The translations under genes were made by a program, and so were the position numbers. This document shows, one piece after another, positions 18,250 to 57,169 of a stretch of 64,000 nt of DNA (its first letter is position 1; every line of letters starts with the position of its first letter). The stretch comes from a virus (taxonomy: Duplodnaviria; Caudoviricetes). The notes under the pieces were generated by a model. It had not been told where the DNA came from, did no database searches, and saw only the letters and a program-made list of their open reading frames with translations. Location: the IMG/VR virus record IMGVR_UViG_3300009180_000041, positions 984 to 64,983 of that record. One strand, given 5' to 3'.

Positions 18250-18317
18250 TAAAGAATTAGAATAATTTAAATAAAATAAGTTATATTATAGTAATAAAAA
18301 AATAAAGATAAAATAAG

Positions 18318-19103: not shown

Positions 19104-19210
19104 TATGTATGTGGCTAACATATGTGTGGTAATGTATTCCAATGTTAAGTTGTTGTCCACTTTTGTTGTGCCCACTCCTGACCCTGTTATATCCCCATAA
19201 AAATATATAC

Positions 19211-19310
19211 AAAAAGATTCCTACATGTGACTCATTTACAATTTAATTTGGTTAAAGAGATTCCTACATGTAACAGTTAATACTGGGTTTGGGTTAAAGA
19301 GATTCCTACC
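19211..19310. repeat. three AGATTCCTAC boxes at 42-43 bp spacing
   Basis: GATTCCTAC at 19216, 19259 and 19301; two are preceded by GGTTAAAGA. Confidence 0.8.
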
Positions 19311-19399
19311 ACATATAATTTATATTAAATTTAGGTTTTAATTTTAAAAAAAGATAGTAAAAAACTGGACTTTATTATGGTAGTATGTTATATTATAGT

Positions 19400-19606
19400 A
19401 TGAAAAATAATATTAATAATTTTATTGACCACAACTTTAACGAGTTTATTAATTTGACTGACAGTGAAGTGTGTCACATTGATCTTAGTGAATTTACACA
19501 TGATGAAGTACTGTACTTACAGAGTATTGAAAGACATGATTATAGAAATATATGTGTGTATTATGCTCACTCAGACAATAAAGTGTGGGTTGAAAATATG
19601 TCGTAA
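19400..19606 (+). CDS. hypothetical protein, apparently leaderless
   Basis: ATG lies 13 nt after the promoter core at 19387. Confidence 0.6.
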   Translation: MKNNINNFIDHNFNEFINLTDSEVCHIDLSEFTHDEVLYLQSIERHDYRNICVYYAHSDNKVWVENMS

Positions 19607-19933
19607 TTGATTCCTACACCAATTAGATTGTATTGGATTATGGTGGTAAAAGATTCCTGCCACCATTATATGTACTTAAAATCCAGTTAAAAATACTAAA
19701 AGTAAAAAAGATAATTTTATGTTAAATGGTTATATTATAGTATGTTAAATAAAAATAATAAAAATATAATTAAAAAGTTATTAAATAAAAAAGATATATT
19801 ATATAAAATAAGTTATATTATAATAAATAAAATAATAATATATAAATAAAATAAATAATATATTATAAAAAAAGAAGAATAATAATAATAAAAAGGTTAT
19901 ATTATAATAATAAAAAGATAAAAAATAAAAAAT

Positions 19934-20251
19934 ATGAAAAATTTAGAAATTAGAAAACCAGGAAGACCAATTGTTGAAAACAGTAAAAGACAATTAGAAT
20001 TAAAAAGTAAAGAAGAATTAAGAAGTTTAGGTTTAATTAAAAAAGGAAGACCAATTAAAGAAGACTCTAAAAGACAAAATGAGTTAAAAAGAAAAGAAGA
20101 ATTAAGAAGTAAAGGTTTATTAAATGGTAAAAAAGGAAGACCAATTAATTTAAATAGTAAAAAACAATTAGAATTTAAAAGAAAAGAAGAATTAAGAAGT
20201 AAAGGTTTATTAAAATTAGGTAGACCAAAAGTTAATAAAGAAGAGGTTTAA
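19934..20251 (+). CDS. multi-AT-hook-like basic repeat protein
   Basis: Four GRP motifs with repeated NSK(R/K)Q.E..RKEELRS.GLL. Paralog of 23101. Confidence 0.8.
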   Translation: MKNLEIRKPGRPIVENSKRQLELKSKEELRSLGLIKKGRPIKEDSKRQNELKRKEELRSKGLLNGKKGRPINLNSKKQLEFKRKEELRSKGLLKLGRPKVNKEEV

Positions 20252-20265
20252 ATAACCTCTTTTTT
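20241..20265 (+). terminator. intrinsic terminator
   Basis: AAGAGGTT-TAAAT-AACCTCTT followed by a T run. Confidence 0.75.
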
Positions 20266-20327
20266 AATTTTTTAGAGTGTTGGTGTTAAATAAGTTATAT
20301 TATATTATATAAAAAGATAAAAAAATT

Positions 20328-20624
20328 ATGAATAAAAAAAGACAAGTTGTAAGTAAGAAAGTTAGAGAGTATGTTAGACAAATTATGAATAATAGAAATA
20401 TTGATGTAATTGGTATGGAAAAATTGAGAAAAGAATTTAAAAGTAGTAATTGTAAAGTATTATTAGAATTAGATAATGAGTATAGAAAGACTTGTATTTA
20501 TAGAAATGGAGATGTAATGTATAATAGTTTTTATAGTTATAATGATAGGTTTTATAAGTTATTAAGAGATGGTGGGGTTTATATGACTATAATTGGAAAT
20601 AAGATGGTTATTTGTTTAGAATAA
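20328..20624 (+). CDS. basic hypothetical protein, paralog of 16320..16634
   Basis: YNDRFYKLLRDGG. Confidence 0.75.
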   Translation: MNKKRQVVSKKVREYVRQIMNNRNIDVIGMEKLRKEFKSSNCKVLLELDNEYRKTCIYRNGDVMYNSFYSYNDRFYKLLRDGGVYMTIIGNKMVICLE

Positions 20625-20644
20625 CCATTTTTTGTTATATTTAT

Positions 20645-20915
20645 CACCGCACACTATTACACACAGTGGTTAGTTAAGACAGGCCTTTGAGCAAGTCCAA
20701 CGTTAGTACACAGCTGAGGCACCGTAACACGTTACACAATGAGTAAATTAGTGAGCAAATTGATTCGACGTTCTGACATTAGTAGCTTGATGCATTAGGC
20801 AGATGATAGCATATCTAGTTGCTCGACACTTAATTGTGTTCGGGCTTTCCTTGACTTTGATTCCTATGTTGATTACCTGTGTACTCAGTACACTGTTCAC
20901 AGCATGGGAAAGTGT
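20645..20915 (+). ncRNA. candidate structured non-coding RNA
   Basis: GC-richer island with no long ORF after a promoter-like GTTATATTTAT. Long-range pairs AGTACACAG/CTGTGTACT and GAGCAA/TTGCTC, plus local hairpins. Confidence 0.45.
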
Positions 20916-20959
20916 TTAGATAAATTTGATAAAACTAGTAAAACTTGTTATATTATAGT

Positions 20960-21142
20960 ATGTTAAATAAAGATATGAAAATAGGTACTAAAGTAAAAGC
21001 AGGTATTAATTTACCATTACAAAATATTGGTTATAGTATTGAGTATTTTGATTGTGAAATTGTTAAAATAAATAAAGTTACTTGTTTAGTAAAATTTGAA
21101 AATGGTAGTGTTAAGAAAGTAATGAAGAATTTAATAAAGTAA
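20960..21142 (+). CDS. small beta-rich hypothetical protein, apparently leaderless
   Basis: KIGTKVKA N-terminus shared with the next gene. Confidence 0.6.
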   Translation: MLNKDMKIGTKVKAGINLPLQNIGYSIEYFDCEIVKINKVTCLVKFENGSVKKVMKNLIK

Positions 21143-21155
21143 GTTATATTATAGT

Positions 21156-21434
21156 ATGATAAAAGATATTAAAATAGGTACTAAATTAAAAGCAGTTAAA
21201 GACGTTTATTATGTTTCAAAAGATACGTTTTATGAAGACTGGTATACACAAGAAGAAATAATGAAATGTGTAAATAAGATGATTACAGTAGGTGATGTGT
21301 ATGAGTTTGTTATTGATGATTTTGTTAATGAAGAATGGGAATGTATTGAAGGTAGTATGTTAGGTGAGTTTAGTGATGGTTATTTTGAAATGGCTAGTAT
21401 GATAAAAAAAGGAGTATTTGAAGTAGTAGAATAA
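21156..21434 (+). CDS. hypothetical protein, apparently leaderless
   Basis: ATG 13 nt after the promoter core. Ends VFEVVE. Confidence 0.7.
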   Translation: MIKDIKIGTKLKAVKDVYYVSKDTFYEDWYTQEEIMKCVNKMITVGDVYEFVIDDFVNEEWECIEGSMLGEFSDGYFEMASMIKKGVFEVVE

Positions 21435-21460
21435 GTTGGAGTAATAGGTTATATTATAGT

Positions 21461-21694
21461 ATGATAAAAAATAATTATAATTTAGTAAAAGAAGTTATTG
21501 AAAGTTTAGAAAGTACTAGTATTTTAAATACTTTTTTAAGTACTTTTAAAGTAGGTAAAAATATAAAAAAGAAAGATTATATTGAGTTTTTATGGAAATA
21601 TATTGATGATGGTAGTGAAATGTATTATGTTGAATTAAATTGGAAATATATTAAGAGTGGTGGTGATGAAAGTGTATTTGAAGTAGTAGATTAA
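21461..21694 (+). CDS. hypothetical protein, apparently leaderless
   Basis: ATG 13 nt after the promoter core. Ends VFEVVD. Confidence 0.65.
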   Translation: MIKNNYNLVKEVIESLESTSILNTFLSTFKVGKNIKKKDYIEFLWKYIDDGSEMYYVELNWKYIKSGGDESVFEVVD

Positions 21695-21720
21695 GTTAGG
21701 TAAATAAGTTATATTATAGT

Positions 21721-21996
21721 ATGTTAAATAAGGTTTTAGATTTAAAAAATAAATTTGATTTTTTCATTTATAGTTTAATTGAAAATAGAGAAAATGGTGA
21801 TTGGGATACTTATGAAGATGGAGAAATTATAGAGTATATTTGGGATTTGAGAGATGAAAGTTGGTTTGATTTAGATTTTAGTTTTAATAGTTTAAGTGAG
21901 TATATTGGTGAGGGAATATGTTATAGTGATGGTTATAGTGTAGAATTAAAAGATTATAAAATGATTGTTGAGATTGTTTATAAAGAATTAGATTAA
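21721..21996 (+). CDS. acidic hypothetical protein, paralog of 17986..18249
   Basis: Clear end-to-end similarity to 17986. Confidence 0.8.
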   Translation: MLNKVLDLKNKFDFFIYSLIENRENGDWDTYEDGEIIEYIWDLRDESWFDLDFSFNSLSEYIGEGICYSDGYSVELKDYKMIVEIVYKELD

Positions 21997-22034
21997 GTTA
22001 GTAAAGTAAGTTATATTATATAAGATAAAAAGTT

Positions 22035-22292
22035 ATGATAGTAAGTATAAAAGATACAATGTGTGACATTAAAACGTTCAATAGTACAAAATACATAAGT
22101 GAAAAAGATGTATTTAGAATAATTAACCGTAAGGTGAGAACAAAGAGGGGCAAAACAATGTCTAAAGAAAAAGTAGCTGATTATGAAAGTCAAGGTTTGA
22201 GATTACATAATGAAATGTACTATGTATTACTATTAGATTTTGATGATTGTTATCACAATAATATGTTAAAAACTGTCAATTACGAGGACTGA
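22035..22292 (+). CDS. hypothetical protein
   Basis: Own promoter at 22010. Confidence 0.6.
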   Translation: MIVSIKDTMCDIKTFNSTKYISEKDVFRIINRKVRTKRGKTMSKEKVADYESQGLRLHNEMYYVLLLDFDDCYHNNMLKTVNYED

Positions 22293-22413
22293 TGTTATAT
22301 TATAGTATGATGTATGTATTTGGAATCGTAGAATTAGTTATTATGGTATTAATATACCGTAATGTAGTTAAAACACTTAATCGTAGTAAGAACACTTACA
22401 TTAAGTAATATAT

Positions 22414-22521
22414 AGTCAGGTGGCGGAATGGAGCGTGGTGTCCACGCTCGTGGTAGACGCTATACTTAAGCAGTTGAAGCTGGGTAATTCAACAATATAG
22501 GTTCGAGTCCTATCCTGATTA
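22414..22521 (+). tRNA. tRNA-like RNA / aberrant class II (Leu-type) tRNA with a hairpin inserted in the D loop
   Basis: Acceptor AGTCAGG/CCTGATT, D arm GCGGAATG...GGTAGACGC, T arm ATAGG-TTCGAGT-CCTAT. Insert GAGCGTGG-TGT-CCACGCTC. A CTTAA remnant lacks a paired anticodon stem. Confidence 0.65.
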
Positions 22522-25848: not shown

Positions 25849-26483
25849 TTAAACTTACAAACATATTAAACCAAATTCTTCTTGAAGAAAAAACTAAACG
25901 TGACAGGTGTCTTAGGATAGCTGATCGTAAGTTTGACAAACCATCAGCATATAAGTCTGGGGCTGTGGTTAGATGTCGTAGAGGTAAAATATGGAAAGAC
26001 TTAAAAGAAGATACTAGAAATTATATTAATTGGAATGAAAATTATGGTAAAACTTTTAAAATAGTTAATACACCTGAAGGAGCACAATCTGGAGGTGAAT
26101 GGAATCCTAATTTAGTTTCAATTGTAACACCAGAAAATAAAAATACTTGGAGTAATTGGAAGGAAGTTTCTCAAGATATTTTAAATAATTTTAAAAAAAA
26201 TTGGGATGAAATTCAAAAATCTTTAGGAGACCATAAATACAACCAAATAATTAAAAGTCAACAATTAAACGAAGACGAAAGTCTTCATAAATGGTTCAAA
26301 CGTCGAGGCCCTAAAGGTAAAGAAACCGGTTGGGTAGATTGTAACGCACCCGATGGAAAAGGAGGTTATAAGTCTTGTGGTAGAAAAAAAGGTGAGACAC
26401 GTAGTAAGTATCCTGCTTGTAGACCTACTCCTAGTGGTTGTAAAAGAAAAGGTAAAGGTAAAACTTGGGGCAAAACAAAATGA
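25845..26483 (+). CDS. late multi-segment protein with MIKL leader
   Basis: Basic Cys-containing segments separated by LEE, LKE and LNE. Confidence 0.75.
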   Translation: MIKLTNILNQILLEEKTKRDRCLRIADRKFDKPSAYKSGAVVRCRRGKIWKDLKEDTRNYINWNENYGKTFKIVNTPEGAQSGGEWNPNLVSIVTPENKNTWSNWKEVSQDILNNFKKNWDEIQKSLGDHKYNQIIKSQQLNEDESLHKWFKRRGPKGKETGWVDCNAPDGKGGYKSCGRKKGETRSKYPACRPTPSGCKRKGKGKTWGKTK

Positions 26484-26797
26484 TAAAATTAACTCAACTA
26501 CTAACTGAAGCAAAACAATCTATTGAAAATTTTGCTAGTACTAGATTAAAAGGTGCTGAAAAAATTGCTGATACTACCTTAAAAGCAGGTGGATTATCAT
26601 TATTAACTTATAAACACTATAAAGTTAAATTACCCTATTATAAAAAAGCAGCAGCTAATAAATTAGATAAAGAAACTGCTAAAAAAGAATTTGAAGAAAC
26701 TTTAAAAAGTATTTCCTTAGGTATGACTCAAAGCCAATTTCAAATTGAAATGGGACGTTTAGAAGTATTAGGAGAATTATTAATAGAAGAAAAATAA
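26480..26797 (+). CDS. late protein with MIKL leader
   Basis: MIKLTQLLTE, ATGA overlap with the upstream gene. Confidence 0.75.
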   Translation: MIKLTQLLTEAKQSIENFASTRLKGAEKIADTTLKAGGLSLLTYKHYKVKLPYYKKAAANKLDKETAKKEFEETLKSISLGMTQSQFQIEMGRLEVLGELLIEEK

Positions 26798-31480: not shown

Positions 31481-31500
31481 ATAATATTTATTACCACATC

Positions 31501-32838
31501 ATGATTAAACTTAGAAATCTTTTAAATGAAAGTCCTGCTCAACCAGCGCCAGCTAGACCTGAAAGAGCTCCTCAACCAGACGTAATGCCTGGTGCTCCTA
31601 AAACAAAACCTGAACCTCGTAGAAGAAGTACTCCAAATCCTAGTACTAGTCCAACACCTAGTCCTAAAGCTCAAACTAAAACTAAAGAAAGACCTCATCA
31701 AGCTCCAAAAGATGGTCCAAAACCAGGCCCAGTTGGTGAAGGCATAATGGATAAAATTGTAGCTAGATACAAATCTGAATTTAATAAATTACATGAGGTT
31801 GACTATGAAAAAATCTTTGATCCTGAAACTGTAGGTAAATTAAAAGGCAGTGTCACTCAAAGAATGCAAGGTAAAAATCCAATGCAATCAATGCAAACAA
31901 TGATGCAACTTGCTCCTCAAATTGCTAGAATTGAAAGAGGATATGAAGATGTTTTAAGTGATTTAGCTAAATCAGTAGTATACGAAGCTTATCCTTATTT
32001 GAAATCTAATCAAGATATTATTGAAATTGACGCTCAAATAGTTTCTCAAAGTCAAGTACAAGACGCTTTACAACCTGACAGTCCAAATGAAGAAGACATT
32101 GAAGACTTAGACGATACTGAAAAAGAAGATATTATGGGTGATATGAAAAAAAGACGTATTATCAATAGTATTACAGCAGGTGGAGCAATAGGAAGTAAAA
32201 CAGCACATTATTTACAACAAGAATACTTAGACGTTATAGGTGATAATTTAAGTGACAAATACAGAGACATCAACCAAGCTTCTCTTGATATGATTGATTT
32301 TGTAGTTAGTCAAGGTAAACAAAACGCTCAAAGAATGGGTGGTAGTAAAGAAAGTAGTGTAGGTGCTGAAAGTGTATTTTGGGATTTTGAAAAAGAAAAA
32401 TGGATTATTAAAGCAAGAGCAGTAAATTTTGCTGTGTTGATTCATGAAATTACAAAAGGAATGTATGAAATCATTAGTTTATTTGGTTTCAACAACTTAG
32501 AACGAGGTGAAAAAGTAGTAGGTAAAGTAGATAAATTATCTAATGAACCTGAAGACTTAGCTTATGGCCAAATGATTAGTAAAAATTTATTTGATTTAAT
32601 CAATAAACTTGAAAGTAATGTTACACCAGATGAAAGAGACGACTTCTTACAAGACGTTTATAAACTACCTAATGAAGAATTTATTAAACTAATTACTAAT
32701 GTTATTAATAATAGAGTAGATACTAACCAAACAAACCAGTTAAAAGGTATGTTTAGTCAAATGAGACAAGACAAAACCGCAGATGATGCTGATAATAGTT
32801 TGTTTGAAAGACTACAAAGAATGGCAGGAATTAGATAA
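31501..32838 (+). CDS. late protein with MIKL leader and Pro-rich N-terminus
   Basis: MIKLRNLLNE, LIHEITKG, C-terminal RLQRMAGI. Confidence 0.8.
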   Translation: MIKLRNLLNESPAQPAPARPERAPQPDVMPGAPKTKPEPRRRSTPNPSTSPTPSPKAQTKTKERPHQAPKDGPKPGPVGEGIMDKIVARYKSEFNKLHEVDYEKIFDPETVGKLKGSVTQRMQGKNPMQSMQTMMQLAPQIARIERGYEDVLSDLAKSVVYEAYPYLKSNQDIIEIDAQIVSQSQVQDALQPDSPNEEDIEDLDDTEKEDIMGDMKKRRIINSITAGGAIGSKTAHYLQQEYLDVIGDNLSDKYRDINQASLDMIDFVVSQGKQNAQRMGGSKESSVGAESVFWDFEKEKWIIKARAVNFAVLIHEITKGMYEIISLFGFNNLERGEKVVGKVDKLSNEPEDLAYGQMISKNLFDLINKLESNVTPDERDDFLQDVYKLPNEEFIKLITNVINNRVDTNQTNQLKGMFSQMRQDKTADDADNSLFERLQRMAGIR

Positions 32839-42956: not shown

Positions 42957-43280
42957 ATGGCTCAAGTAAACGTTTCAACACAAAAATTAATATACAGCAA
43001 TAATATAAATAAGGTTGTAAATACAACTTTAACAAATTATATTCCTCCTATAAATACAACACCTGCTCCTCCAGTTGTTGATGTTCCTCAATTTTTTGAA
43101 AATTATGATAATTTATTTTATAGTATTCCTAAAACTGGAACTAATAGTCATGAAACACTTATAACAAAAAGTAGTGAATATATTGGACTTAATTTACAAC
43201 AATTATTATTACAGTTACAAGAATTACAAATTCAAAATGAATTATTACAAAAACAAATAGATACTTTTAATAATCAATAA
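42957..43280 (+). CDS. small virion-cluster protein
   Basis: FFENYDNLFYSIPKTG..SH plus a coiled coil. Confidence 0.7.
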   Translation: MAQVNVSTQKLIYSNNINKVVNTTLTNYIPPINTTPAPPVVDVPQFFENYDNLFYSIPKTGTNSHETLITKSSEYIGLNLQQLLLQLQELQIQNELLQKQIDTFNNQ

Positions 43281-46200
43281 TGGCAGTTTCAATAAATCCA
43301 ATAAATTTAAATCCAAGTATTTTAGATACTCAAGATCAAAATCTTGTAGCATCAAAAGAATTAACCAGATATTTTGGTCTACCACAAGATTATATTCAAT
43401 TGTATGTTTATAATAACAATGATGTTTTATTAAATTCAATTCCTAATTTTCAAAAATATTCTATTACTGATAATAAAGTAGTAAATTTTGATCCTGAATT
43501 AGATATTCAAGATTTAGGTTATAGTATTGGTACATTTAATATGTACTATAATTTTTTAAGACCAATTGTCACTATTAATTCTGATCTTGATTTATTTATT
43601 CAAAATATTTCTCAAGACAGAACAGAAGTAAAAATAGCAACTACTTTAGAGTCAAATGATGTAGTTTACAGTAATGCTATAAATTATATTGATACAATAA
43701 ATACAAGAGATTATTTTGTTGAATTTTATTTAGATTTAGGTCAAAATATTTTAATACCAGCTTCAACATTTTCAGTAGAAAAAGATGTTTTAGGTAATAT
43801 AAATATTTTAGTTAAATTAATAAATCCATTACCCACCAATATTACTGTTAAATCTCCTTTAAATATTGTTGAAAAAATAGTAGATACACAAGGTTATAAT
43901 GCTTTTTTAACCCAAACCCCAACAACTGTTGTTTTACCATCTTTAAGACAAGCTAATTTTAGTTTAAATGTAGATGATCAAAGAATTGGTTCAAGTGATT
44001 ATTATAATTTTAATCAATTAACTGCTTTAACAGGTTCTAATAATCCTCAATTACAAAATTTATTAGGTTTTATTAGTAGTTCAAATCCAACTATTAATGT
44101 TGATTATACTGATTATAGTAATTTTACTCATTTTGGATCACAAACTCAAAAACTAAGTACATTTAAAACTAAAATACAAAAATTAGAATTATATAATAAT
44201 TATTTACCATCATCAAGTTTAGATAATATAGTTTATCAAAATAAAATAAATGAAATTATTGAAGGATTTGATGGATATGAAACTTACTTGTATTTTGAAT
44301 CTACAAGTTTTGCTTGGCCTAAATCTAATACTCAACCTCCTTTTAACTTATATTCTTCAACTTCATCTCAAGCAATAAACTGGTATAATCTTAATTACAC
44401 ATCAGCTAGTTATTATGATGAATTTAACAATAATAATTTAGTTTATGGTTTACCAATTTATTTACAAGAAAGAGATGATTTTGAATATGTAAAACCATTT
44501 ATTCATTCTATGGGTCAAATGTTTGATGACATTTGGATTTACATAAGAGCTATTACTGATATTTGGAAAGCAAAAAACAGTTTAATGGATGGTATTTCTA
44601 AAGATTTAGTAGGAGATGCTTTACAGTCTTTAGGTATTAGTCTTTATACTGATGGTGATCAAGATGATTTAGCTACTTATCTTTATGGTGTAAATCAAAG
44701 TGGAAGTTATACATTTATGTCTCAACCTTGGCAAACTGCTATAACTGCTTCTAATCCTACTTTATCTGGACAAGATGAAGCTAAATCAGTATTTAAAAGA
44801 ATATATGCTAATTTACCAACATTACTTAAATCAAAAGGCACAACCAAATTTGTAAATTATTTAACTACTCTTTATGGTATTCCTGATACAGTATTAGTAC
44901 CTTTAGAATTTGGTGGTGTTGATAAAGACTCAAATACAATTGAATACAGTTATCCTAAATTTACATATGCTTTAAGTAGTAGTAAAACAACATATACTCA
45001 ATTAAGTTTACCTGATTCAACAAAACAACAAATTCAAACATTAGAATTTAGATTTAAACCTTATCCTAGTGCGTCTTTATATGCTACTCAATCTTTATTT
45101 AGTAATTTCGCTACAGGTTCTTCTAAAAGACCTAATAGTATAATTACATTAAATGGAAAACAAAGTGGAAGTTATCAATATGGAACATTAAATTTTTATT
45201 CAAATGATTCTGGGTTGGCTTTATATAATACTCCTTTACAAGTAACTTTACCATTTTATGTAACTGGTTCTGATGGAGACTATAATTGGTGGAATGTAGT
45301 TTTAGAAAGAAACTCTACTACTACTAGACTTTATGTAAAATCTGAATTAAGTGGTGAAATAGGACATCAATCTTCTTCATTTACTTCAACTCCATCTAGT
45401 AGTAGATTTATTGAAACTGGAAGTAATACTTACTTAGGAACAATTCCTCCAAATATTACAGCGTCTTTAATTAATGCTCCTTTCTATAATTTTGGAACTG
45501 GTGAATACTATGGTCAATTTCAAGAATTAAAAGCATACAATAACTTTATATCAGAGTCTGTAATTAATACTCATACATTAAATCCAGAATCATATGTAGG
45601 AAATAATTCAAATTCAGCTTATAATGATTTATTATTTAGATTTCCTTTAGGAAATGATTTACAAATAAGCGGAAGTAGAATTACAGGTTCACAACCAACT
45701 TTAAGATCAGATATTACTTTAAATCTTACTGGTTCTAATTATATTTCTTTTACAGAAATGTATCACAGTCAACCAGCTATTGGGGGATACTCTGTTCCTG
45801 TTACTAATAAAATTAGAATAGTTAGTGAAAGTTTAGCTTCAAATATTCTTCAATTTAATAAATCTGTAGTTTATCCTTCTACTAGTTCTAGAACATTTGA
45901 TGTTCAAACTGCTCAAGCAGGATTTAGTCCACAAGATCAAATTAATAATGATATCATAGCTCACTTAGGTAATACTTATAATTTAGATAATATTATAGGA
46001 GATCCTTTAACTCTTACAGATTCTAGTTATGAAGCTTTAAGTAGATTACAAGAAAATTATTTTACTAAATACAATACCACTTACAATTATAAAGATTTTT
46101 TAATATTAATGGAGACTTTTCATAAGTCTTTATTTAGATATTTGAATGATTTCACCCCAGCTAGAACAGACATGTCTAGTGGTGTGATAATTAAACCTCA

Positions 46201-48529
46201 TATTCTTGAAAGAAATAAAGTAGCCAGACATGAACCTAATGTTAGTACAAGTTCTGTGTATTTTGGTGAAACTGAAGTTGTAACTATTGAAGGATCTAAT
46301 CCTGGAGACTATTGTTGTTCAAGAAATTCTCCATTAAATGAAGCTTTTTACACAGGAAATATAAGTGGTTCTACTATAAATTTAGACAGTGCTTATGAAC
46401 AATTAAATCCATTTACATCAACTACAGAATGTTATGAATATACAATTCAGTATGATGGACTACTTACTTGGTTAGATTGTAATAATATACAACAAGCATC
46501 TGGTTCTAGTGGATTAAATCAAATTCAAATTGTAGCTTTAAAAGATCAAATAGGTCATACTTTTGGAACAGGATACACAATAGTAAATTCTAATTCTTAT
46601 TATGGAACACGATTTGTTCAACAATATGGAGGATACGATGCTTTAAATAATAATGTTGATAAAGCTATAATTAGTCAATTTAAATTTAAAAAACTTAATA
46701 CTCAAGTAGAACCAGATACAAGATGTACTTGTGTAAGATATGATGTAAATAGTTTAGATGTAAGTAATGCTCATTATTTATCATATGTAGATTGTGGTGG
46801 TAACATACAAATAATACTTATTCCTAATGCTCTTTCAGGCGGTAGAAATATACTTATAGATGCATGTGAAGGAAGTTTATACTCATTTGATGGTCCTGGA
46901 TTTTTATCATGGTTATTTGTTGAATTTATATTCCAGCCATCAACTATAAATGTTTTAAAAAGCGGAAGTGTTGAATTTCAAGATAGTTTATTAACTGAAA
47001 CTAGTTGGGATAGAAGTAGAGTAGAAGGTGTAAAACTTATAGCTCCTGGTTTTAATCAATTTATTAATAATTATCCTTCTTTGTCTTTTAGTAATGTAGA
47101 AATAACTACACCATACATGTTATTTTATGATTGGGCTAGTAATACTTTACCTGAAAGACAAAATACTAATAATTTTCATATTAGATATTTAATTGATGAA
47201 ACTGGAAAAATATATTCACCTGAACCAACTGGGTCAGAGTACTACGATATTGTAGATCAAGGATTTGGAGCATATGATGAAGTAAATTATACATTATATA
47301 ATGCTACTTATTACCAACAATCTTCTAAATCAGCTACAGTACATAGACCTTTAAGAACCTATTCAACAATACTTTACTCAGATACAGGATCTTGGAATAT
47401 TCAAAATTCAAATAAATTAGCCCCAGGATATTTTTCACCTATTAATTTTCAAACTCCAGATGATTTTAAACTTACAGAAGTAGCATTTACTAGTAGTTTA
47501 AGTGGTGATATAAGTAAAGGATATGATAATAATCCATTCACTGTTAATTTTAATAATATTCAAAAACAACTAAATGGAATCTGGAATCCTACTACTAACA
47601 CATATACAATAACTGAAACACCAACAAACCAAGTAAACATTTCAGCAACTATAGATGGTTATTTTACAGTTCAAGTAAATACAGCTGGAGGTTCAAATAA
47701 TGTAGATATAACATATAAACTATGTTTAAAAAGAGGTCCAAAAATTTCTATTCTTTCAACTTACACAACTACTAATTCAGTATCTGCTCCAACAATTCCT
47801 TTAACTACTTATAATAGATCATTAAATGGTACTGTATCAGCTAATAATCAAAACTTATATGCAGGTGATGAAATATATATAACTGCTGATTTTGCTGGAT
47901 TAGGAAGTGGTTTTACAGGACAATATAATGGTTTTATATCTGATGATAATACAATTATAAAATTACAAAGTAATACTACTTTAAATACCGCTATTTCTAC
48001 TGTATATACTCCATATTGGTATCCTACTTCTAGTGCTAATGTACAAATAAAAGGAGACATAAATAATCCTCAAGCTTCTGATTTTGAAGTTAGATCTTAT
48101 ATAATTACAGGTTCATTAAACTTTCAAAATATGTACCAAAATTATCAACAAAATCCAAATATCCCTGGTACAACTCTAAACAGTGGATTTAGTGATCCAT
48201 TATTATTTACTATTCAACCAAATGATGAATTTAGATTTAATGGGGATGAAAGTAAAATATACACAGTAATTACAGCATCTATTAGTATGGTAGATAATGG
48301 ATCAGGATACTTAGGAAGTTTATGGGTTCAATTAGATAAAAATCCAAGTTTAGTAGATACAAACTATTTTGTTATAAGGCGATTAACAGATGATCCTGGA
48401 TTTATAATGATTAATACTAAAGATTCCCAAGGTCCAGGATTTATATTACCTAAATATCCTTCTTCAACATTAAAGAAAAATTTTTCAAACATAGTTCAAG
48501 ATTTAGCATCGAAAAACTTATTAATATAA
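43280..48529 (+). CDS. large virion/baseplate structural protein (1749 aa)
   Basis: GQMFDDIW, NLPTLLKSKGT (tail P2-I/gp7-like), a LamG-like segment and GVIIKPHILERNK. Confidence 0.8.
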   Translation: MAVSINPINLNPSILDTQDQNLVASKELTRYFGLPQDYIQLYVYNNNDVLLNSIPNFQKYSITDNKVVNFDPELDIQDLGYSIGTFNMYYNFLRPIVTINSDLDLFIQNISQDRTEVKIATTLESNDVVYSNAINYIDTINTRDYFVEFYLDLGQNILIPASTFSVEKDVLGNINILVKLINPLPTNITVKSPLNIVEKIVDTQGYNAFLTQTPTTVVLPSLRQANFSLNVDDQRIGSSDYYNFNQLTALTGSNNPQLQNLLGFISSSNPTINVDYTDYSNFTHFGSQTQKLSTFKTKIQKLELYNNYLPSSSLDNIVYQNKINEIIEGFDGYETYLYFESTSFAWPKSNTQPPFNLYSSTSSQAINWYNLNYTSASYYDEFNNNNLVYGLPIYLQERDDFEYVKPFIHSMGQMFDDIWIYIRAITDIWKAKNSLMDGISKDLVGDALQSLGISLYTDGDQDDLATYLYGVNQSGSYTFMSQPWQTAITASNPTLSGQDEAKSVFKRIYANLPTLLKSKGTTKFVNYLTTLYGIPDTVLVPLEFGGVDKDSNTIEYSYPKFTYALSSSKTTYTQLSLPDSTKQQIQTLEFRFKPYPSASLYATQSLFSNFATGSSKRPNSIITLNGKQSGSYQYGTLNFYSNDSGLALYNTPLQVTLPFYVTGSDGDYNWWNVVLERNSTTTRLYVKSELSGEIGHQSSSFTSTPSSSRFIETGSNTYLGTIPPNITASLINAPFYNFGTGEYYGQFQELKAYNNFISESVINTHTLNPESYVGNNSNSAYNDLLFRFPLGNDLQISGSRITGSQPTLRSDITLNLTGSNYISFTEMYHSQPAIGGYSVPVTNKIRIVSESLASNILQFNKSVVYPSTSSRTFDVQTAQAGFSPQDQINNDIIAHLGNTYNLDNIIGDPLTLTDSSYEALSRLQENYFTKYNTTYNYKDFLILMETFHKSLFRYLNDFTPARTDMSSGVIIKPHILERNKVARHEPNVSTSSVYFGETEVVTIEGSNPGDYCCSRNSPLNEAFYTGNISGSTINLDSAYEQLNPFTSTTECYEYTIQYDGLLTWLDCNNIQQASGSSGLNQIQIVALKDQIGHTFGTGYTIVNSNSYYGTRFVQQYGGYDALNNNVDKAIISQFKFKKLNTQVEPDTRCTCVRYDVNSLDVSNAHYLSYVDCGGNIQIILIPNALSGGRNILIDACEGSLYSFDGPGFLSWLFVEFIFQPSTINVLKSGSVEFQDSLLTETSWDRSRVEGVKLIAPGFNQFINNYPSLSFSNVEITTPYMLFYDWASNTLPERQNTNNFHIRYLIDETGKIYSPEPTGSEYYDIVDQGFGAYDEVNYTLYNATYYQQSSKSATVHRPLRTYSTILYSDTGSWNIQNSNKLAPGYFSPINFQTPDDFKLTEVAFTSSLSGDISKGYDNNPFTVNFNNIQKQLNGIWNPTTNTYTITETPTNQVNISATIDGYFTVQVNTAGGSNNVDITYKLCLKRGPKISILSTYTTTNSVSAPTIPLTTYNRSLNGTVSANNQNLYAGDEIYITADFAGLGSGFTGQYNGFISDDNTIIKLQSNTTLNTAISTVYTPYWYPTSSANVQIKGDINNPQASDFEVRSYIITGSLNFQNMYQNYQQNPNIPGTTLNSGFSDPLLFTIQPNDEFRFNGDESKIYTVITASISMVDNGSGYLGSLWVQLDKNPSLVDTNYFVIRRLTDDPGFIMINTKDSQGPGFILPKYPSSTLKKNFSNIVQDLASKNLLI

Positions 48530-50941: not shown

Positions 50942-51340
50942 ATGGCATTATTTACAGTAAATACCAGCAGTATATATAATTTACAGGTAAATAACACTTA
51001 CCCTGTTTATGAACAAACTATAAAATGTGTTGTTAAAGACTATGAATTTAACACAAGTTACAATCCAACTTTAACTACAGGATCAGTAGGTTATGTGTAT
51101 TTATCTGGATCAGATTGGATTACAGGTAGTGTACTTCCAACACCATATACAAGTAGTTATTATACACAGCCAGATACCCAAATAAAAGATTTTGCTACTG
51201 GATCAGATTTTAGTCCTTATATGTCAGTAATAGGATTGTATAATGATTCAAATCAACTTTTAGCAATAGCTAAAATGGCTCAACCTGTTCCTTTATCAAA
51301 TAACACAGATATGACTTTTATAATTAAAATGGACTGGTAA
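50942..51340 (+). CDS. virion structural protein, similar to the C-terminal part of 49210
   Basis: EFNTSYNPT and YMSVIGLYNDSNQLLAIAKMAQP. Confidence 0.75.
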   Translation: MALFTVNTSSIYNLQVNNTYPVYEQTIKCVVKDYEFNTSYNPTLTTGSVGYVYLSGSDWITGSVLPTPYTSSYYTQPDTQIKDFATGSDFSPYMSVIGLYNDSNQLLAIAKMAQPVPLSNNTDMTFIIKMDW

Positions 51341-51795
51341 TGTGGTACGAATTTAAAAATGACTTAAAATATTATAATACAATCAATGATTTTCCTGAAA
51401 ATTCGTTGGGTTTTGTGTATAAAATAACACATAAAACATCAAATCGATATTATATTGGAAAAAAGATTTTATTTAATAATACCAAACAAAAACTTGGTAA
51501 AAAAGAATTATTAGAACAAACAGGAAGAGGTAGAAAACCACTAACTAAAATTGTTACTAAAGAAAGTACTTGGAAAGACTATTGGGGTTCTAGTAAAGAA
51601 TTCTTAAATTATATAAAACAAGAAGGTAAAGACAACTTTAAAAGAGAAATTTTAGCAATTTGTCCTAATAAAAAACTTCAAACATACAATGAATTAAAGT
51701 ATTTATTTAAATACAATGTTTTAGAAGATCCACTTAGTTTTAATGACAACATTTCTGGACATTTTTTCAGAAAAGATTTGGTTCTTCCAAGTTAA
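51340..51795 (+). CDS. GIY-YIG (Seg-like) endonuclease
   Basis: GFVYKIT....YYIGKK, YWGSS and FKREIL. Confidence 0.85.
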   Translation: MWYEFKNDLKYYNTINDFPENSLGFVYKITHKTSNRYYIGKKILFNNTKQKLGKKELLEQTGRGRKPLTKIVTKESTWKDYWGSSKEFLNYIKQEGKDNFKREILAICPNKKLQTYNELKYLFKYNVLEDPLSFNDNISGHFFRKDLVLPS

Positions 51796-52740: not shown

Positions 52741-53522
52741 GTATTCAAAAAAATGACAACATCTACAAACACCATTATTTAAAACGTGTTGTAGAACACA
52801 AAGGAGAACAAATAAATTTCCTTGATCAACGATTTTATAAAACAGAAAATGGAGAATACTACCCATCAGTTACATCTGTACTCAACTTTTATCCAAAAAA
52901 CAAATTTTTTGAAAGTTGGTTAAAAGATGTTAGCCATAATAGTGATATTATTGTTAGAAAAGCAGCAGAAGAAGGAACAACAGTTCATGAATCTATTGAA
53001 AAATTCTTAGATGGTGAAGAAATTAAATGGATGGATGAAAATGGACGTGCTAATTTTAGTTTAGATGTATGGAAAATGATTTTAAGATTTAGTGATTTTT
53101 GGAAAACTATTAAACCTGAATTACTAGCTAGTGAAATTCATTTATTAAACCATGATCATAAATACGCAGGAACATGTGATTTAGTAGTAAAAATTGATGG
53201 AAAAATATGGCTATTAGACATTAAAACATCAAATAGTTTACATACTTCATATAATTTACAATTAAGTGCATACGCTGAAGCGTGGAATTCTTATTATCCT
53301 GAAGAAAAAATTGAACATGTTGGTATTATTTGGTTAAAATCATCTAAAAGAGGTAAAAAAGAAGACAAAATACAAGGTGATGGTTGGGAAATTATTCAAC
53401 CTGACAAAACAATTGATGAATATTTTAGAATGTTTATGAATATTTATGAAATTTATTTACTAGAAAATCCATATCAAAAACCATTATTTGAAAGTTTCCC
53501 AACAACAATTAAATTAACTTAA
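52737..53522 (+). CDS. PD-(D/E)xK exonuclease
   Basis: YPSVTSVL, GTTVH, YAGTCDL, LDIKTS and QLSAY. Confidence 0.9.
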   Translation: MSIQKNDNIYKHHYLKRVVEHKGEQINFLDQRFYKTENGEYYPSVTSVLNFYPKNKFFESWLKDVSHNSDIIVRKAAEEGTTVHESIEKFLDGEEIKWMDENGRANFSLDVWKMILRFSDFWKTIKPELLASEIHLLNHDHKYAGTCDLVVKIDGKIWLLDIKTSNSLHTSYNLQLSAYAEAWNSYYPEEKIEHVGIIWLKSSKRGKKEDKIQGDGWEIIQPDKTIDEYFRMFMNIYEIYLLENPYQKPLFESFPTTIKLT

Positions 53523-53537
53523 TATTTATTGGCTGAC

Positions 53538-54377
53538 ATGATTTCTCTACGTTCCCTTTTATTAGAAGTATACGGAGGTCCAAAAGCCATTATTTTAGCT
53601 GGTGGAGCAGGTGTTGGTAAATCAACATTTACTAACACTTTAACACCTTTTTTACCTTCAAATTTTAAAATTTTTAATCCTGACACTCATAATCCAGATG
53701 ACGATCCTAATAGACCAAATATAGCTAAAAATTCAGCTGATATTAGAAAAAATGCTATTCCTGACGCGATAAAAAACAAACAAAGTTTTGTTTATGATAC
53801 TACTGGTCAAAATTTTAAAGAAACAGTTAAAATTATTCAAGAAGCTCAACAAGCTGGTTTTAAAGTAATGATGATTATGCTTTATGCTTCTCCAATTGTT
53901 AGTTTTTTAAGAAATTTTAGTAGAGACAGAACACTTCCTAAAGATGCTGTGTTAAACAATTGGGCTAAAGTTTATGGTTTAATAGATAATTATAAAAAGG
54001 TACCAAATCTAGAATTTGCTTTAGTTCAAACTGAATTAAAACCAAACGAAAGAGAAGATGTAGCTGAATTTAATAAAGCTTACTCAGAAAATGAATTAGA
54101 AGAGTATTTTAAACAATTAATTCAAACTGATCCTTCAAAATACTATTCATCTTTTAGAAAACCAAAACCATCTGACATTGAAACCGCAGATGATCTACCA
54201 GATCCTGAAGAAGTAAAAGCTAAAGAAGAAAGAAAAAAAGAAAGTGAAAAAAGATTCTCAGATGCTATTAAAAATCTTAAAGATCAATTTAAACAAGTAG
54301 AAAAATATTTAAAAATAATTAAACCTATGGACTATAAAGAAGTAGTAGGTACAGTGAAAACATTTACAAAACCATGA
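53538..54377 (+). CDS. Zeta-toxin/AAA_33-like P-loop kinase with MISL..LLLE leader
   Basis: ILAGGAGVGKST, FNPD, YDTTG and RNFSRDR. Confidence 0.8.
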   Translation: MISLRSLLLEVYGGPKAIILAGGAGVGKSTFTNTLTPFLPSNFKIFNPDTHNPDDDPNRPNIAKNSADIRKNAIPDAIKNKQSFVYDTTGQNFKETVKIIQEAQQAGFKVMMIMLYASPIVSFLRNFSRDRTLPKDAVLNNWAKVYGLIDNYKKVPNLEFALVQTELKPNEREDVAEFNKAYSENELEEYFKQLIQTDPSKYYSSFRKPKPSDIETADDLPDPEEVKAKEERKKESEKRFSDAIKNLKDQFKQVEKYLKIIKPMDYKEVVGTVKTFTKP

Positions 54378-57169
54378 TAGACGCTAAAGAAATAGGAAAA
54401 CAAATAGCTGAAGATGTAGCTAATCCTCCTTTACCATGTTATTATCCTGGAGGTTTTAAACCACCAACAAAAGGACATTATGCCGCTGCTGAATTTTTAG
54501 CTGGTAAAAATTATATTAATCAAGTAAATGTTTTAATAGGCCAAGGTAAACGAGAAGGATATCCAATATCTGCTCAACAAAGTAAAGCTATTTGGGATCT
54601 TTATTTAAAAGCAAATGCTAATCCAAAAATTAAAGTAGCAGTATCTCAAAAAAATTCACCAATTGGAGACTTATTTACTTACTTTGCTGATTTAAATCAT
54701 GAAGGTTATGTAGCTGGTGCTCAAGAAGAAATTGAAAAAGGTTATTTTTCTGTATTAAAAGAAAAATTTCCAGGTCGTGTTCGTGAACAAGTTATTGAAG
54801 ATCAATTTGTAACAGGTGGAGAACGAGTTAGTGGAACTCAAACTAGAGAATTATTAGATGAGTTAAAAACTACATTTGATGCTTTACGTCAAGAACAAAA
54901 AGGAACTAAAGAATACACTATAAAACTTAATGAGTATAATAATGCTTATGAAGCAGTGAAAACTATGGTTCCTGATGCTGTAATTCAAAAAGGATTATAT
55001 GATGATTTTTTAAGAATTTTAGGATTAAATCACCCTGAACCAAAATCATTACAAGAAGACAATAATTACAATAAAGAAAAAAATTGGGTTTGGTTAGAAG
55101 AATACAAAAATAAAAAACAACTTAATCCAATGTTATTTGATGGTGAAAAATTAGATCCACAAGTAAAAGAATTATTATTAAAAATAGCTACAATATTTTG
55201 GGATGGTTTAGAAACTGATGAACCTTTTGAAGATGTTGTTTTAACAGGATCATCAGCTAATTACAATTATACTAATAGTTCAGATGTAGACTTACATATT
55301 ATTATTGATTTCAATAAGTTTAAAGAGCCAGAAAGAATGAAAAAGTTTTTTGATATGGCGAAAAACAATTGGAATAATACACATGATCCAAAACTTGGTA
55401 AACATCCTATTGAAATTTATGTTCAAGATTCTAATGAAACACACACTTCAACAGGAGTTTATTCAGTAATGAATGATGAATGGGAAAAGAAACCAGAGTA
55501 TGAATCTATAAACATTCCTGATGGAAATATTAAGAAAAAATCAAAACCATTTAAAGAAAAAATAAATCAATTATTAAAAACAGGAAATAAAAATCCTGAA
55601 AAATCTATAGAACAAATAAAAATAATACAAGAACGTTTAAAGAATTTTAGACAAGCTGGATTAGATAAAAACGGAGAATACTCAGTTGAGAATTTAGCAT
55701 TTAAGGATTTAAGAAACACAGGTTATTTAAATAAATTGAATGATTTAAAAAATGAGTTAATTGATAAAACAATTTCATTAAATGAATCATTTCAAGAGAA
55801 TATTCAATCATTATTAAATAATTTTATGTCTTATGCTTGTCAAGAACTCCAAATTGAAAACCCGCCAACGTTGGAAATCCGAAACGAATTCGGAGAGGAA
55901 CAACCTAGCTTTGGGGCTTATGTTCCCTCTGATCATCATATATTTATTAATCCTTCTAGTAGGAACATTGTTGACATTTATAGAACATTAGCTCATGAAT
56001 TAGTTCATGCTAAGCAAAATGAGATGGGAATGTTAACACCAAATAGTGGTGAAACTGGTAGTGATCATGAAAATGATGCTAATAGTATTGCTGGTATTAT
56101 TATGAGAGACTATGGAAAACAAAATCCAAAAATTTATAAAATTGGTGTATTAAATGAATCTAAGAATGATTGGAAAAAAACATCATGGGAAAATGAAAAA
56201 GGCCAAAAAGTAACATTGCCTCAACTTTTAGATATTATTAAAGATTATCCTATTATACAAGCACCTATTGGAAAAATTAAAAAAATAGTTATTAAAAAAG
56301 ATACAGGAGGTATTGAATCAGATAGATTAAATAAAGCTGATTTTAAACATCCTATTATTGTAGTTGTAGATGATCAAAATAATTTTAAATATATTTTAGA
56401 TGGTAATCATAGAGCTAATAAAGCTATAGATTCTAATTTAAAAACAATTCCTACTAAGTTAGTAAATATAAATAAATTACCTAAAAAATTCCAGAATGTA
56501 TTAGATGAATCTGAAACAAAAACAACTGTAACTTGTGACAACTGTGGTTGGACTTGGAAAAAGAAAGACGGAGGAAAAGATTTATATGTTTGTCATAAAT
56601 GTGGAAATGATAATACTCCAAAAAATAAATTGAAAGAAGAAACAGAAAAAAATCCAAAAATTACAAGAATTTACTTTGATTTAGATGGAGTATTAGCTGG
56701 TTTTGATGATCAATTCAGAAAATACAATAAAGAAAAATTAGATTTTAAAGAATACATTGGAAAATATGGTTCAAGTAAAGCTTGGGACATAATTAACAAA
56801 GGAACAGACAAATACTGGTCAGGAATGGATTGGAATCCTGGTAGAAAAGAACTTTATGATTATGTTATGAAAATGGCTCCTCAAAAAAATATTGAAGTAT
56901 GGGTACTATCAAGTCCTGGTTTAGATCCTAATGGAGACGCTAAAAAAGGCAAAAACGAGTGGTTAAATAAACATACAAATATTCCACAAAATCGTAGAGT
57001 ATACAAACAAGCAAAAGACAAACACACAGAAGCAAAACCAGGTTATTTATTAATAGATGATATGGGTAAAAATGTTAGTGAATTTATTAATGCTGGTGGA
57101 ACTGGTATTAAAAACAACCCAGAAAATTCCAAAGAATCAATAACAAAATTACATAAATTTGGATTATAA
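54374..57169 (+). CDS. six-domain polyvalent protein: HxGH nucleotidyltransferase, Pol-beta NTase, zincin, ParB-like, Zn ribbon, HAD 5'-nucleotidase
   Basis: PGGFKPPTKGH, TGSSANYNY..SDVDLH, AHELVH, LDGNHR, CDNC..CHKC, FDLDGVLA...LIDD. Confidence 0.85.
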   Translation: MIDAKEIGKQIAEDVANPPLPCYYPGGFKPPTKGHYAAAEFLAGKNYINQVNVLIGQGKREGYPISAQQSKAIWDLYLKANANPKIKVAVSQKNSPIGDLFTYFADLNHEGYVAGAQEEIEKGYFSVLKEKFPGRVREQVIEDQFVTGGERVSGTQTRELLDELKTTFDALRQEQKGTKEYTIKLNEYNNAYEAVKTMVPDAVIQKGLYDDFLRILGLNHPEPKSLQEDNNYNKEKNWVWLEEYKNKKQLNPMLFDGEKLDPQVKELLLKIATIFWDGLETDEPFEDVVLTGSSANYNYTNSSDVDLHIIIDFNKFKEPERMKKFFDMAKNNWNNTHDPKLGKHPIEIYVQDSNETHTSTGVYSVMNDEWEKKPEYESINIPDGNIKKKSKPFKEKINQLLKTGNKNPEKSIEQIKIIQERLKNFRQAGLDKNGEYSVENLAFKDLRNTGYLNKLNDLKNELIDKTISLNESFQENIQSLLNNFMSYACQELQIENPPTLEIRNEFGEEQPSFGAYVPSDHHIFINPSSRNIVDIYRTLAHELVHAKQNEMGMLTPNSGETGSDHENDANSIAGIIMRDYGKQNPKIYKIGVLNESKNDWKKTSWENEKGQKVTLPQLLDIIKDYPIIQAPIGKIKKIVIKKDTGGIESDRLNKADFKHPIIVVVDDQNNFKYILDGNHRANKAIDSNLKTIPTKLVNINKLPKKFQNVLDESETKTTVTCDNCGWTWKKKDGGKDLYVCHKCGNDNTPKNKLKEETEKNPKITRIYFDLDGVLAGFDDQFRKYNKEKLDFKEYIGKYGSSKAWDIINKGTDKYWSGMDWNPGRKELYDYVMKMAPQKNIEVWVLSSPGLDPNGDAKKGKNEWLNKHTNIPQNRRVYKQAKDKHTEAKPGYLLIDDMGKNVSEFINAGGTGIKNNPENSKESITKLHKFGL

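Follow-up and report, generated by a model that had tools for sequence, protein, structure and literature searches.

This work concerns one gene of a marine T4-like phage, carried on a 64-kb stretch of DNA (hereafter the window), which is part of the 64,983-bp viral record IMGVR_UViG_3300009180_000041, with a CheckV completeness of 39%. The open reading frame (ORF) in question, on the plus strand at 54374..57169, is uninterrupted and encodes a protein of 931 residues and 106.6 kDa, in which six biochemically disparate modules are joined and every junction carries or abuts the tripeptide L-x-E. We propose, with a probability of about 0.6, that this protein would be a cassette polyprotein which is packaged in the capsid and cut by the prohead protease. 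The packaging and processing reading is supported because a Peptidase_S77 protease is encoded by relatives, the junctions share its site type, the coupled kinase carries a leader, a late-type motif lies upstream, and relatives carry ART-PolyVal and SLT modules. An earlier, sequence-only reading of this DNA had suggested a protease-released toolkit delivered with the DNA, a suggestion for which the evidence set out below offers strong indirect support, the substrates named in it (nucleotide signals, NAD and tRNA ends) being speculative.

The description of six modules, also made in that reading, was borne out by sequence motifs, by PHROG and Pfam matches and by an AlphaFold2 model compared with known structures using Foldseek, the sequence support of some modules being weak. 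Comparison of folds was used because sequence searches against the PDB gave matches at chance level (best E 0.13 for domain 1 alone and 0.45 for the family profile). The full-length model was built on 39 family sequences, with a mean pLDDT (predicted local distance difference test) of 75.9, and a separate model of residues 472-712 (pLDDT 84.5) served for the fold search of the zincin and ParB-like modules. The chain opens with a leader, MIDAKEIGKQIAE (residues 1-13; 54374..54412), which ends in I11-A-E13 and occupies a conserved position in the close family, residues 4-16 forming a helix in the model. Module 1 (residues 14-228, ending in LQE 226-228; 54413..55057) is a HxGH nucleotidyltransferase of the NMNAT/PPAT-like kind. 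Such enzymes are defined by a Rossmann-like fold that bears (T/H)xGH and SxTxxR-type motifs, represented here by T32-K-G-H35 and S153-G-T-Q-T-R158. Pfam, searched up to E 1, gave no match to this module of the present protein, and the homolog P0128 scores 28.6 bits with CTP_transf_like (PF01467; cutoff 21). When the full-length model was compared, Foldseek retrieved the NMNAT/NadD structures 5llt_A, 4yp6_A and 5deo_D (E 1.3-2.1e-3; target-normalised template-modelling score of 0.63 at most), matches which we infer to belong to module 1, the aligned residues not being part of the Foldseek output.

A spacer of 15 residues (229-243, ending in LEE 241-243; 55058..55102), within a segment of pLDDT below 50 (residues 225-250), separates this module from module 2, a Pol-beta-type nucleotidyltransferase (residues 244-471, ending in LNE 469-471; 55103..55786) that matches phrog_36119 over residues 245-469 (E 2.6e-43). 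Its motif G292-S-S...D304-x-D306 is at least 90% conserved at G292-S-S, D304 and D306, and the Pol-beta family PF01909 scores 18.5 bits here, under its cutoff of 21, and 22.6-23.2 bits in homologs. Module 3, a zincin metallopeptidase (residues 472-595, ending in LNE 593-595; 55787..56158) with HELVH at 541-545, is matched by phrog_87 (E 2.6e-5) and, under cutoff, by DUF6782 and M91, the matched span being residues 454-573; its fold matches, to minigluzincins and IrrE, are weak (E ~0.03), and the HExxH is at least 90% conserved in the 39-sequence alignment. Module 4 (residues 596-712, ending in LDE 710-712; 56159..56509) is ParB/sulfiredoxin-like, with DGNHR at 676-680 and matches over residues 609-706 to phrog_17560 (E 7.1e-9) and the ParB-like phrog_723 (E 1.1e-3); the fold matches are weak but coherent, comprising sulfiredoxin, ParB, Noc and KorB (best E 7.6e-3). 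Module 5 (residues 713-755, ending in LKE 753-755; 56510..56638) is a CxxC...CxxC Zn ribbon, such models matching residues 710-748 with Pfam E values of 0.06-0.1 at best. Finally, module 6 (residues 756-931; 56639..57166) is a HAD phosphatase resembling 5'(3')-deoxyribonucleotidases, matched over residues 757-920 by phrog_2643 (E 4e-17) and NT5C (PF06941, 16.9 bits, under its cutoff of 24.8); within its motif D769-x-D771-G-V the residues D769, D771, G772 and V773 are conserved, and the deoxyribonucleotidases cdN/mdN match the model at E 5e-6.

The protein contains nine LxE tripeptides, against 5.4 +/- 2.1 in 2,000 shuffled sequences. In the full-length model the segments between domains with pLDDT below 50 are residues 225-250, 464-475, 590-599, 713-717 and 749-759, and the model of residues 472-712 also dips at 594-597. 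LQE226, LNE469, LNE593 and LKE753 are located inside these linkers, and the end of LDE710 is one residue short of the fourth, so that the series LQE/LNE/LNE/LDE/LKE, first read from the sequence as one LxE per junction, coincides with five of five linkers defined by structure prediction. When the linkers are widened by one residue, all five hold the Glu of an LxE, which was matched by none of 200,000 sequence shuffles, and random placement of nine sites put a Glu in all five linkers in 2 of 200,000 trials. A sixth linker-located site, LEE241, lies in the first linker and matches the position of the [L/I]xE-Y that opens standalone Pol-beta nucleotidyltransferase homologs. The sites at 128, 161 and 185 are inside confident helices of domain 1, and modules 2-6 have no internal LxE.

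The sequence-only reading would have been refuted by homologs whose domain boundaries ignore LxE, and when this test was run the borders were found to track the motif. In a word-indexed search, 336 proteins matched at E <=1e-3, and the best 120 of them, with lengths of 558-1319 residues, were examined. The reading frame is unbroken in these ~120 independent database proteins, which come from many contigs and sources, as well as in the closest complete relative (G001, 179.7 kb), whose homolog of 809 residues is ~75-77% identical (77% in the best segment). For this reason a mis-joined ORF, that is, adjacent genes read as one through annotation or assembly, was rejected, its likelihood being negligible even considering that in the cultured Flavobacterium phage immuto NT5C is a separate gene and the module order is different. 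Among the best 119 homologs, similarity to the query breaks at q228, q593-597, q709-713 and q750-754. The commonest form, of 778 residues, is devoid of ParB and Zn ribbon, and forms of 808-811 residues lack ParB only; longer homologs carry extra cassettes, each bracketed by L-[N/Q/K]-E (as in P0045, with LNE at 589, 715, 870 and 1017 and LKE at 1140), and the first junction of some homologs contains an inserted DUF5661 cassette. Nearly all of the 119 retain the core of NMNAT-like, Pol-beta and zincin modules (approximately residues 1-595).

When breakpoints were defined without recourse to the motif, by an all-against-all comparison of 50 non-redundant sequences, the right ends of high-scoring segment pairs peaked at the LxE Glu itself (72 at d = 0), and 39% of right ends and 36% of left starts fell within 5 residues of it, compared with 9% of random positions, the rest being widely scattered. 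Moreover, the 39-sequence alignment has four invariant columns, two of which are L469 and E471, while L226 and E228 are at least 90% conserved. An exhaustive profile search recovered 7,883 representatives at E <=1e-3, chiefly through the Pol-beta module; among the best 149, 139 aligned to this module and, setting aside 10 alignments that end early and 5 proteins that end there, 124 were informative for the LNE469 column, which reads [L/I]-x-E in 110, [V/M]-x-E in 4 and otherwise in 10. The middle residue is free to vary. Proteins terminating at the Pol-beta module stop at ...LSL, lacking x-E.

A similar picture was obtained with the short homologs of the C-terminal half (142 at E <=1e-8, the best 120 of which were analysed), small proteins assembled from the same cassettes: ParB, Zn ribbon, HAD and Cys-rich modules. 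Of 74 ParB modules with at least 5 residues after them, 71 end in [LIVMF]-x-E, and an [L/I]xE marks the upstream border of 63 out of 76. When ParB is the terminal module, the chain stops at ...VL and the Glu is missing (5/5); standalone ParB proteins have a single LxE, at residue 10. The view of LxE as a mere structural end of the modules was rejected, since modules lose the Glu when they are C-terminal. ART-PolyVal, SLT+LysM, NUDIX, Amidoligase_2 and deaminase modules occur in more distant members, ART-PolyVal (PF18760) being matched in the distant homolog P0159 at E 2.2e-59.

In this context, the DNA of the junctions has to be considered, together with a quite different account of the motif. 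The ParB cassette is flanked by repeats of the form GTATTA[A/G]ATGAATCT, which are alike at 14 of 15 nucleotides, and G001 reads GVLNE|SETK, as if exactly one ParB unit had been excised. Both facts would suit a protein that is never packaged, a cytoplasmic multi-enzyme for nucleotide metabolism during replication, whose LxE would be just a favoured linker or recombination junction inherited with the cassettes. Its neighbours, a primase, an exonuclease and a GIY-YIG endonuclease, as well as the metabolic annotation (PHROG category) that NMNAT-like and NT5C-like genes carry in phages, would suit such a protein too. Nevertheless, we hold this account to be improbable. L and E are invariant with x free, and at the L, x and E codons the window phage and G001 differ synonymously, which indicates that it is the junction peptide that is maintained. 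Furthermore, the Glu is lost on terminal modules, LxE is largely absent within modules, and the account leaves unexplained the conserved 10-residue leader of the adjacent kinase and the late-type motif before it. Within the packaging reading, the near-identical repeats and the exact excision in G001 imply that the junction may also serve as microhomology for the exchange of cassettes.

The kinase is encoded immediately upstream (53538..54377, plus strand; 279 residues from ATG 53538), its ORF ending at 54377 and overlapping the start of the polyprotein at 54374 by ATGA. This overlap confirms the coupling first read from the sequence, and the Zeta-like assignment of the kinase is confirmed by a PF06414 match (E 7.6e-11, 42.3 bits against a cutoff of 22.3) and by the P-loop GGAGVGKS. 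The longest ORF would start at TTG 53529; as this codon overlaps the promoter-like motif described below, ATG 53538, which gives the usual spacing and the conserved leader, is the likely start. From this ATG, residues 1-10 read MISLRSLLLE, a leader resembling a capsid-targeting sequence. Among 88 kinase homologs (E <=1e-10), 73 begin with the pattern M-I-[S/K]-L-x-x-[L/I]-L-x-E and have the P-loop at residues 22-23, and most of those without the pattern look truncated at the N-terminus. The same leader, M-I-[K/S]-L-x-x-[L/I]-L-x-E, is present on 43 of the 113 Met-started short cassette proteins (among the best 120 of 142), often trailed by a second LxE at residues 12-14. The polyprotein has its own leader, MIDAKEIGKQIAE here and MNIAEIGKLIGEE in most relatives, which closes with [I/L]-[A/G]-E near residues 10-13, in front of the Rossmann motif.

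No kinase was found as a fused cassette inside the polyprotein homologs or the representatives. Among the homologs of the kinase itself, P0473-P0477 (443-448 residues) fuse the leader and the Zeta-like kinase, through LNE, to the HAD nucleotidase, so that the kinase shares the same pool of cassettes. T4 polynucleotide kinase-phosphatase consists of a P-loop kinase and a HAD phosphatase, and P0473-P0477 likewise join the two activities; the labels differ, in that the HAD module best matches 5'(3')-deoxyribonucleotidases and the kinase matches Zeta_toxin. These fusions, and the RNA ligase gene located in the window at 14147-15262, would fit the idea, put forward in the sequence-only reading, that the enzymes act on tRNA ends.

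Three ORFs of this record bear the leader, starting at 26480, 31501 and 53538, as do five ORFs of G001, in which 1,366 Met-initiated peptides were scanned. The first (26480..26797, plus strand, 105 residues) begins with MIKLTQLLTE, its homolog in G001 beginning with MINLIKLLLE. The second, a 445-residue ORF from 31501 (31482..32838 with its promoter motif at 31482, plus strand), begins with MIKLRNLLNE and has a Pro/Ala-rich N-terminal region; the homolog in G001 has the same leader and the same promoter motif. Neither ORF has a PHROG match, and both are candidates for internal head proteins. Some small proteins of ~250 residues (P0326 and P0349, and the G001 ORFs at 171323 and 171561) are composed of the leader, a Cys-rich module of ~35 residues (...DRCKRIADRKYDKPSAYKSGA... 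or ...KKLCPKGKAYYNRR...), ParB and a second Cys-containing module (...WVRIDTxGNITGPCG... or ...GGWVDCNTC...); every border is [L/I]xE, and some have a precomputed PF19197 match.

The leader-bearing proteins also bear on the question of which enzyme would cut. Release of the domains of polyvalent proteins is assigned, in the published model, to embedded peptidases (PMC5512222), and here the embedded zincin (HELVH), which belongs to the invariant core and whose HExxH is at least 90% conserved, might cut the LxE linkers itself, either in cis or in trans and either inside the head or once injected, with no role for a prohead protease. However, only 1 of the 43 leader-bearing cassette proteins contains HExxH and the other 42 have the same LxE junctions, so that the scheme does not depend on a zincin in cis. 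The motif is, in addition, the site type of T4 gp21, present in the protease, the scaffold and the propeptide of the major capsid protein of relatives, and the fold matches of the zincin (E ~0.03) are weak and silent on a specificity for Glu at P1. Self-processing is therefore regarded as unlikely, although the zincin of the polyprotein might act in trans.

As regards the prohead protease, G001 encodes a Peptidase_S77 enzyme of the T4 gp21 type (E 5.7e-34) and a gp23-type major capsid protein (E 2.5e-75), and Peptidase_S77 is also present in the two cultured flavobacterial phages immuto and Molly, the latter a Maribacter phage. The G001 protease, of 210 residues, has LIE at 5-7 and LNES at 174-177, and its scaffold contains SLEES, VDESK and SLNEAK. 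In the major capsid protein of G001, four [L/I]xE fall in the first 59 residues, compared with five in the other 503, and the last of the early sites, IVE-59, is just ahead of the region matching mature gp23. The immuto protease contains LLTE-S and ISLNE-G. Since these proteins carry LxE sites, the junctions of the polyprotein and the head proteins of these phages have one site type in common. T4 gp21 has a general preference for L/I-x-E, which agrees with the sites known in its substrate Alt and in gp21 itself. In the accounts cited, gp21 cuts the ejected enzyme Alt at ITE-6 and LTE-619 (PMC5694885), and is itself cut at LIE-9 and processed at the C-terminus (PMC9026906); the capsid-targeting sequences of the internal proteins are of 10-19 residues, with processing determinants at residues 8 and 10 (in IPIII, a hydrophobic residue at P3 and Glu at P1), and in T4 an exchange of the P1 Glu for Asp blocks processing and leaves targeting intact (PMC9026906). 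The leader of the coupled kinase, MISLRSLLLE, conforms to this geometry. All this suggests that the L-x-E linkers may be cut sites of the phage's own head-maturation protease.

The locus in immuto has the same local gene order as the window: primase, exonuclease, a hypothetical protein, a multi-module protein of 907 residues and a separate NT5C. At this locus (L001, 2206-5839) related modules are found in a different order. A protein of 302 residues begins at the very point at which, in P0131, a Pol-beta-like cassette follows ILNE, a cassette border in one phage thus being a gene border in another, and the 907-residue protein, located 3' of it, comprises a Pol-beta-like module, a HxGH nucleotidyltransferase and two HExxH regions.

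With respect to timing, a 'late motif' had been noted at 53522. What stands of this claim is that the motif is real and recurs before start codons; its lateness was deduced from position, and it is not the T4 late consensus. The motif, TAATATTTAT, is located at 53520..53529 on the plus strand, 18 nucleotides 5' of the kinase ATG. There are nine copies in the window, all on the plus strand, against 3.4 +/- 2.0 expected on both strands, nine being reached in 1 of 100 shuffles. Eight lie 15-27 nucleotides 5' of an ATG (4645, 31501, 38999, 41716, 48545, 53538, 57776 and 61438), baseplate-region genes included, and the ninth, at 34282, is within an ORF. In G001, where no kinase gene is found at this place, TAATATTTAT lies 20 nucleotides 5' of the polyprotein ATG, and the core ATATTTAT precedes a 342-residue gene heading the run of protease, scaffold and major capsid protein, and also a 282-residue head gene. 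From these positions the kinase-polyprotein pair would be expressed late. The T4 consensus TATAAATA was rejected as the late motif of this phage: it occurs 11 times in the window, seldom before starts and never 5' of the kinase-polyprotein pair. A second promoter-like motif, GTTATATTATA, is found ~25-35 nucleotides 5' of many gene starts in the region 700-23,100 (for example 712, 1494, 1961, 3298, 5960, 6743, 7816, 12515, 14147, 18318, 19934 and 23101), and probably represents an early or middle promoter class of this phage.

Several observations weigh against a packaged and processed polyprotein. The gene adjoins those of a primase and an exonuclease, not head genes, and genes for NMNAT and NT5C are often cytoplasmic auxiliaries too, NT5C being separately encoded in immuto. 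A search of the window's own record for Peptidase_S77 was negative, and no control genome was matched either; as this record is a 39%-complete fragment without a head module, the negative does not speak for absence. P0159, a distant Pol-beta-first protein with ART-PolyVal, has no counterpart in viral contigs from which the protease type of its phage could be read. The polyprotein leader MIDAKEIGKQIAE departs from the consensus MIKLxxLLxE, and processing might be the work of the zincin, which is in the invariant core. Indel boundaries of the alignment may account for part of the low pLDDT at the linkers, and the near-identical repeats flanking the ParB cassette might, via recombination alone, explain part of the recurrence of the motif. 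As for expression, the label 'late' derives from position only, the exact 10-mer occurring once in the head-module locus of G001 (L007), and the major capsid protein, scaffold and protease of G001 have no motif of their own, their co-transcription being assumed.

The proposed mechanism of packaging and processing can be formulated as a sequence of steps, in which we infer late expression, packaging, the cutting protease, ejection and all substrates. The polyprotein would be transcribed late, together with the Zeta-like kinase, from a ATATTTAT-type promoter, and taken up into the prohead core like T4's internal proteins and Alt. There, a gp21-type protease (Peptidase_S77) would cut after the Glu of L-x-E in the leader and in every linker, with products of ~24, 27, 14, 13, 5 and 20 kDa. 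These pieces would be ejected along with the DNA and would act before phage gene expression, on substrates that belong to host defence or metabolism, namely nucleotides, NAD or the ends of nucleic acids. The L-x-E linkers, encoded by a near-identical stretch of 12-15 nucleotides, would double as microhomology. The cassette unit would then begin just after one Glu and run through the next, and cassettes would be swappable from one phage to another, as well as between polyproteins and the small proteins with a leader, because every linker has this near-identical DNA. In a wider and more tentative formulation, to which we give somewhat less than even odds, marine T4-like Bacteroidota phages would use a cargo code of two parts, the prohead-targeting leader MIKLxxLLxE and the L-x-E linkers cut by the prohead protease, so that a single leader could load a whole string of swappable enzymes, to be cut apart in the capsid and injected ahead of gene expression as a modular, fast-evolving counter-defence toolkit.

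The placement of this protein among known systems starts from the polyvalent proteins (Iyer, Burroughs, Anand, de Souza and Aravind, 2017), predicted to be co-injected with DNA and released by embedded peptidases (PMC5512222). The framing of the protein as one of them, made in the sequence-only reading, holds: six disparate modules are found in one phage ORF of 931 residues, and hub domains of the published kind are represented by the zincin (HELVH/phrog_87) and the ParB-like module (DGNHR with weak ParB/Srx matches). As in the polyvalent proteins described there, unrelated enzyme modules, zincin metallopeptidase and ParB-like included, are joined in one chain, and distant relatives of this protein share ART-PolyVal, SLT/LysM and NUDIX with them. 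There are also differences. The published Pol-beta nucleotidyltransferase clade is, in that account, minimal, from firmicute elements and fused to ArdC-N (PMC5512222), unlike the module found here. Moreover, release in the published model is by embedded peptidases without a linker motif, at least in the main account, where the word 'linker' does not occur and 'prohead' occurs in one reference title, and whose supplementary files may list related architectures, whereas this family has a defined L-x-E linker site matching a trans-acting T4-type protease, cassettes delimited by it and a leader shared with standalone proteins.

The T4 internal proteins IPI-III and Alt (PMC9026906, PMC5694885, PMC3012670), as far as these sources describe them, combine a T4-type protease, an N-terminal propeptide and cleavage at the Glu of [L/I]-x-E, features with candidate counterparts in the present family, and constitute diverse cargo, including the ejected enzyme Alt, with only the leader in common, comparable in this respect to the present cassette family. 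In T4, however, single proteins are trimmed at their ends, while the chain described here would be divided at internal linkers into five or six different enzymes. The leader family also differs from that of T4, no cargo module is a homolog of a T4 internal protein or Alt, and the present system is known from sequence. A further comparison is provided by the ejection or inner-body proteins of phiKZ, 201phi2-1 and SPN3US, which a gp21-related protease cuts C-terminal to Glu at multiple sites (PMC5694885, PMC9026906); there, according to the same sources, the motif is S/A/G-x-E or A-x-E, not L-x-E, and the cuts remove long propeptides instead of dividing a chain of enzymes. In the literature on polyvalent proteins, prohead proteases and capsid targeting, surveyed at the level of titles and abstracts, neither an enzyme polyprotein delimited by prohead-protease sites nor such a leader was found.

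As for the remainder of the window, its GC content is ~28%, coding is almost wholly on the plus strand, and its genes include a sigma factor, RNA ligase, endonuclease VII, homing endonucleases, baseplate wedge proteins, primase and exonuclease; the host of this T4-like phage is probably a member of the Bacteroidota. A nucleotide search of the polyprotein gene against cultured phage genomes gave no match, and scans of the whole window with ARAGORN and Rfam detected no tRNA and no RNA family. The region 16,650-22,500 has few ORFs of at least 100 residues, with a GC skew of up to 0.60 at 20,001-22,000, and a sequence resembling a tRNA T-arm, GGTTCGAGTCC, lies just 5' of 22525. Homing-endonuclease genes are located at 51340-51795, 3298-4632 and 4645-5388, of segE-like GIY-YIG (E 1.9e-25) and HNH/GIY-YIG types; one of them, two genes 5' of the exonuclease-kinase-polyprotein run, separates the structural block from the primase. 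An ORF of 1749 residues at 43280-48529, in the baseplate/tail region, has no PHROG match at E <=1e-5 and presumably encodes a tail fibre or a large baseplate protein.

Polyvalent proteins are widespread, as illustrated by the 7,883 representative clusters matching this one at E <=1e-3, and the present family offers an alternative to release by an embedded peptidase: a site with Leu at P3 and Glu at P1 at each junction, a candidate protease acting in trans and a shared, putative targeting leader, in a system with two cultured relatives (immuto and Molly). If the proposal is true, the capsid-targeting and processing logic of T4 would reach from the end-trimming of single proteins to the dissection of a multi-enzyme polyprotein, and injected cargo would become predictable from the sequence, comprising in this record three leader-bearing ORFs and the polyprotein. 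It would also provide a mechanism for the turnover of cassettes, and the NMNAT-like, Pol-beta nucleotidyltransferase, Zeta-like kinase, HAD phosphatase and ParB-like enzymes would act at the first moment of infection.

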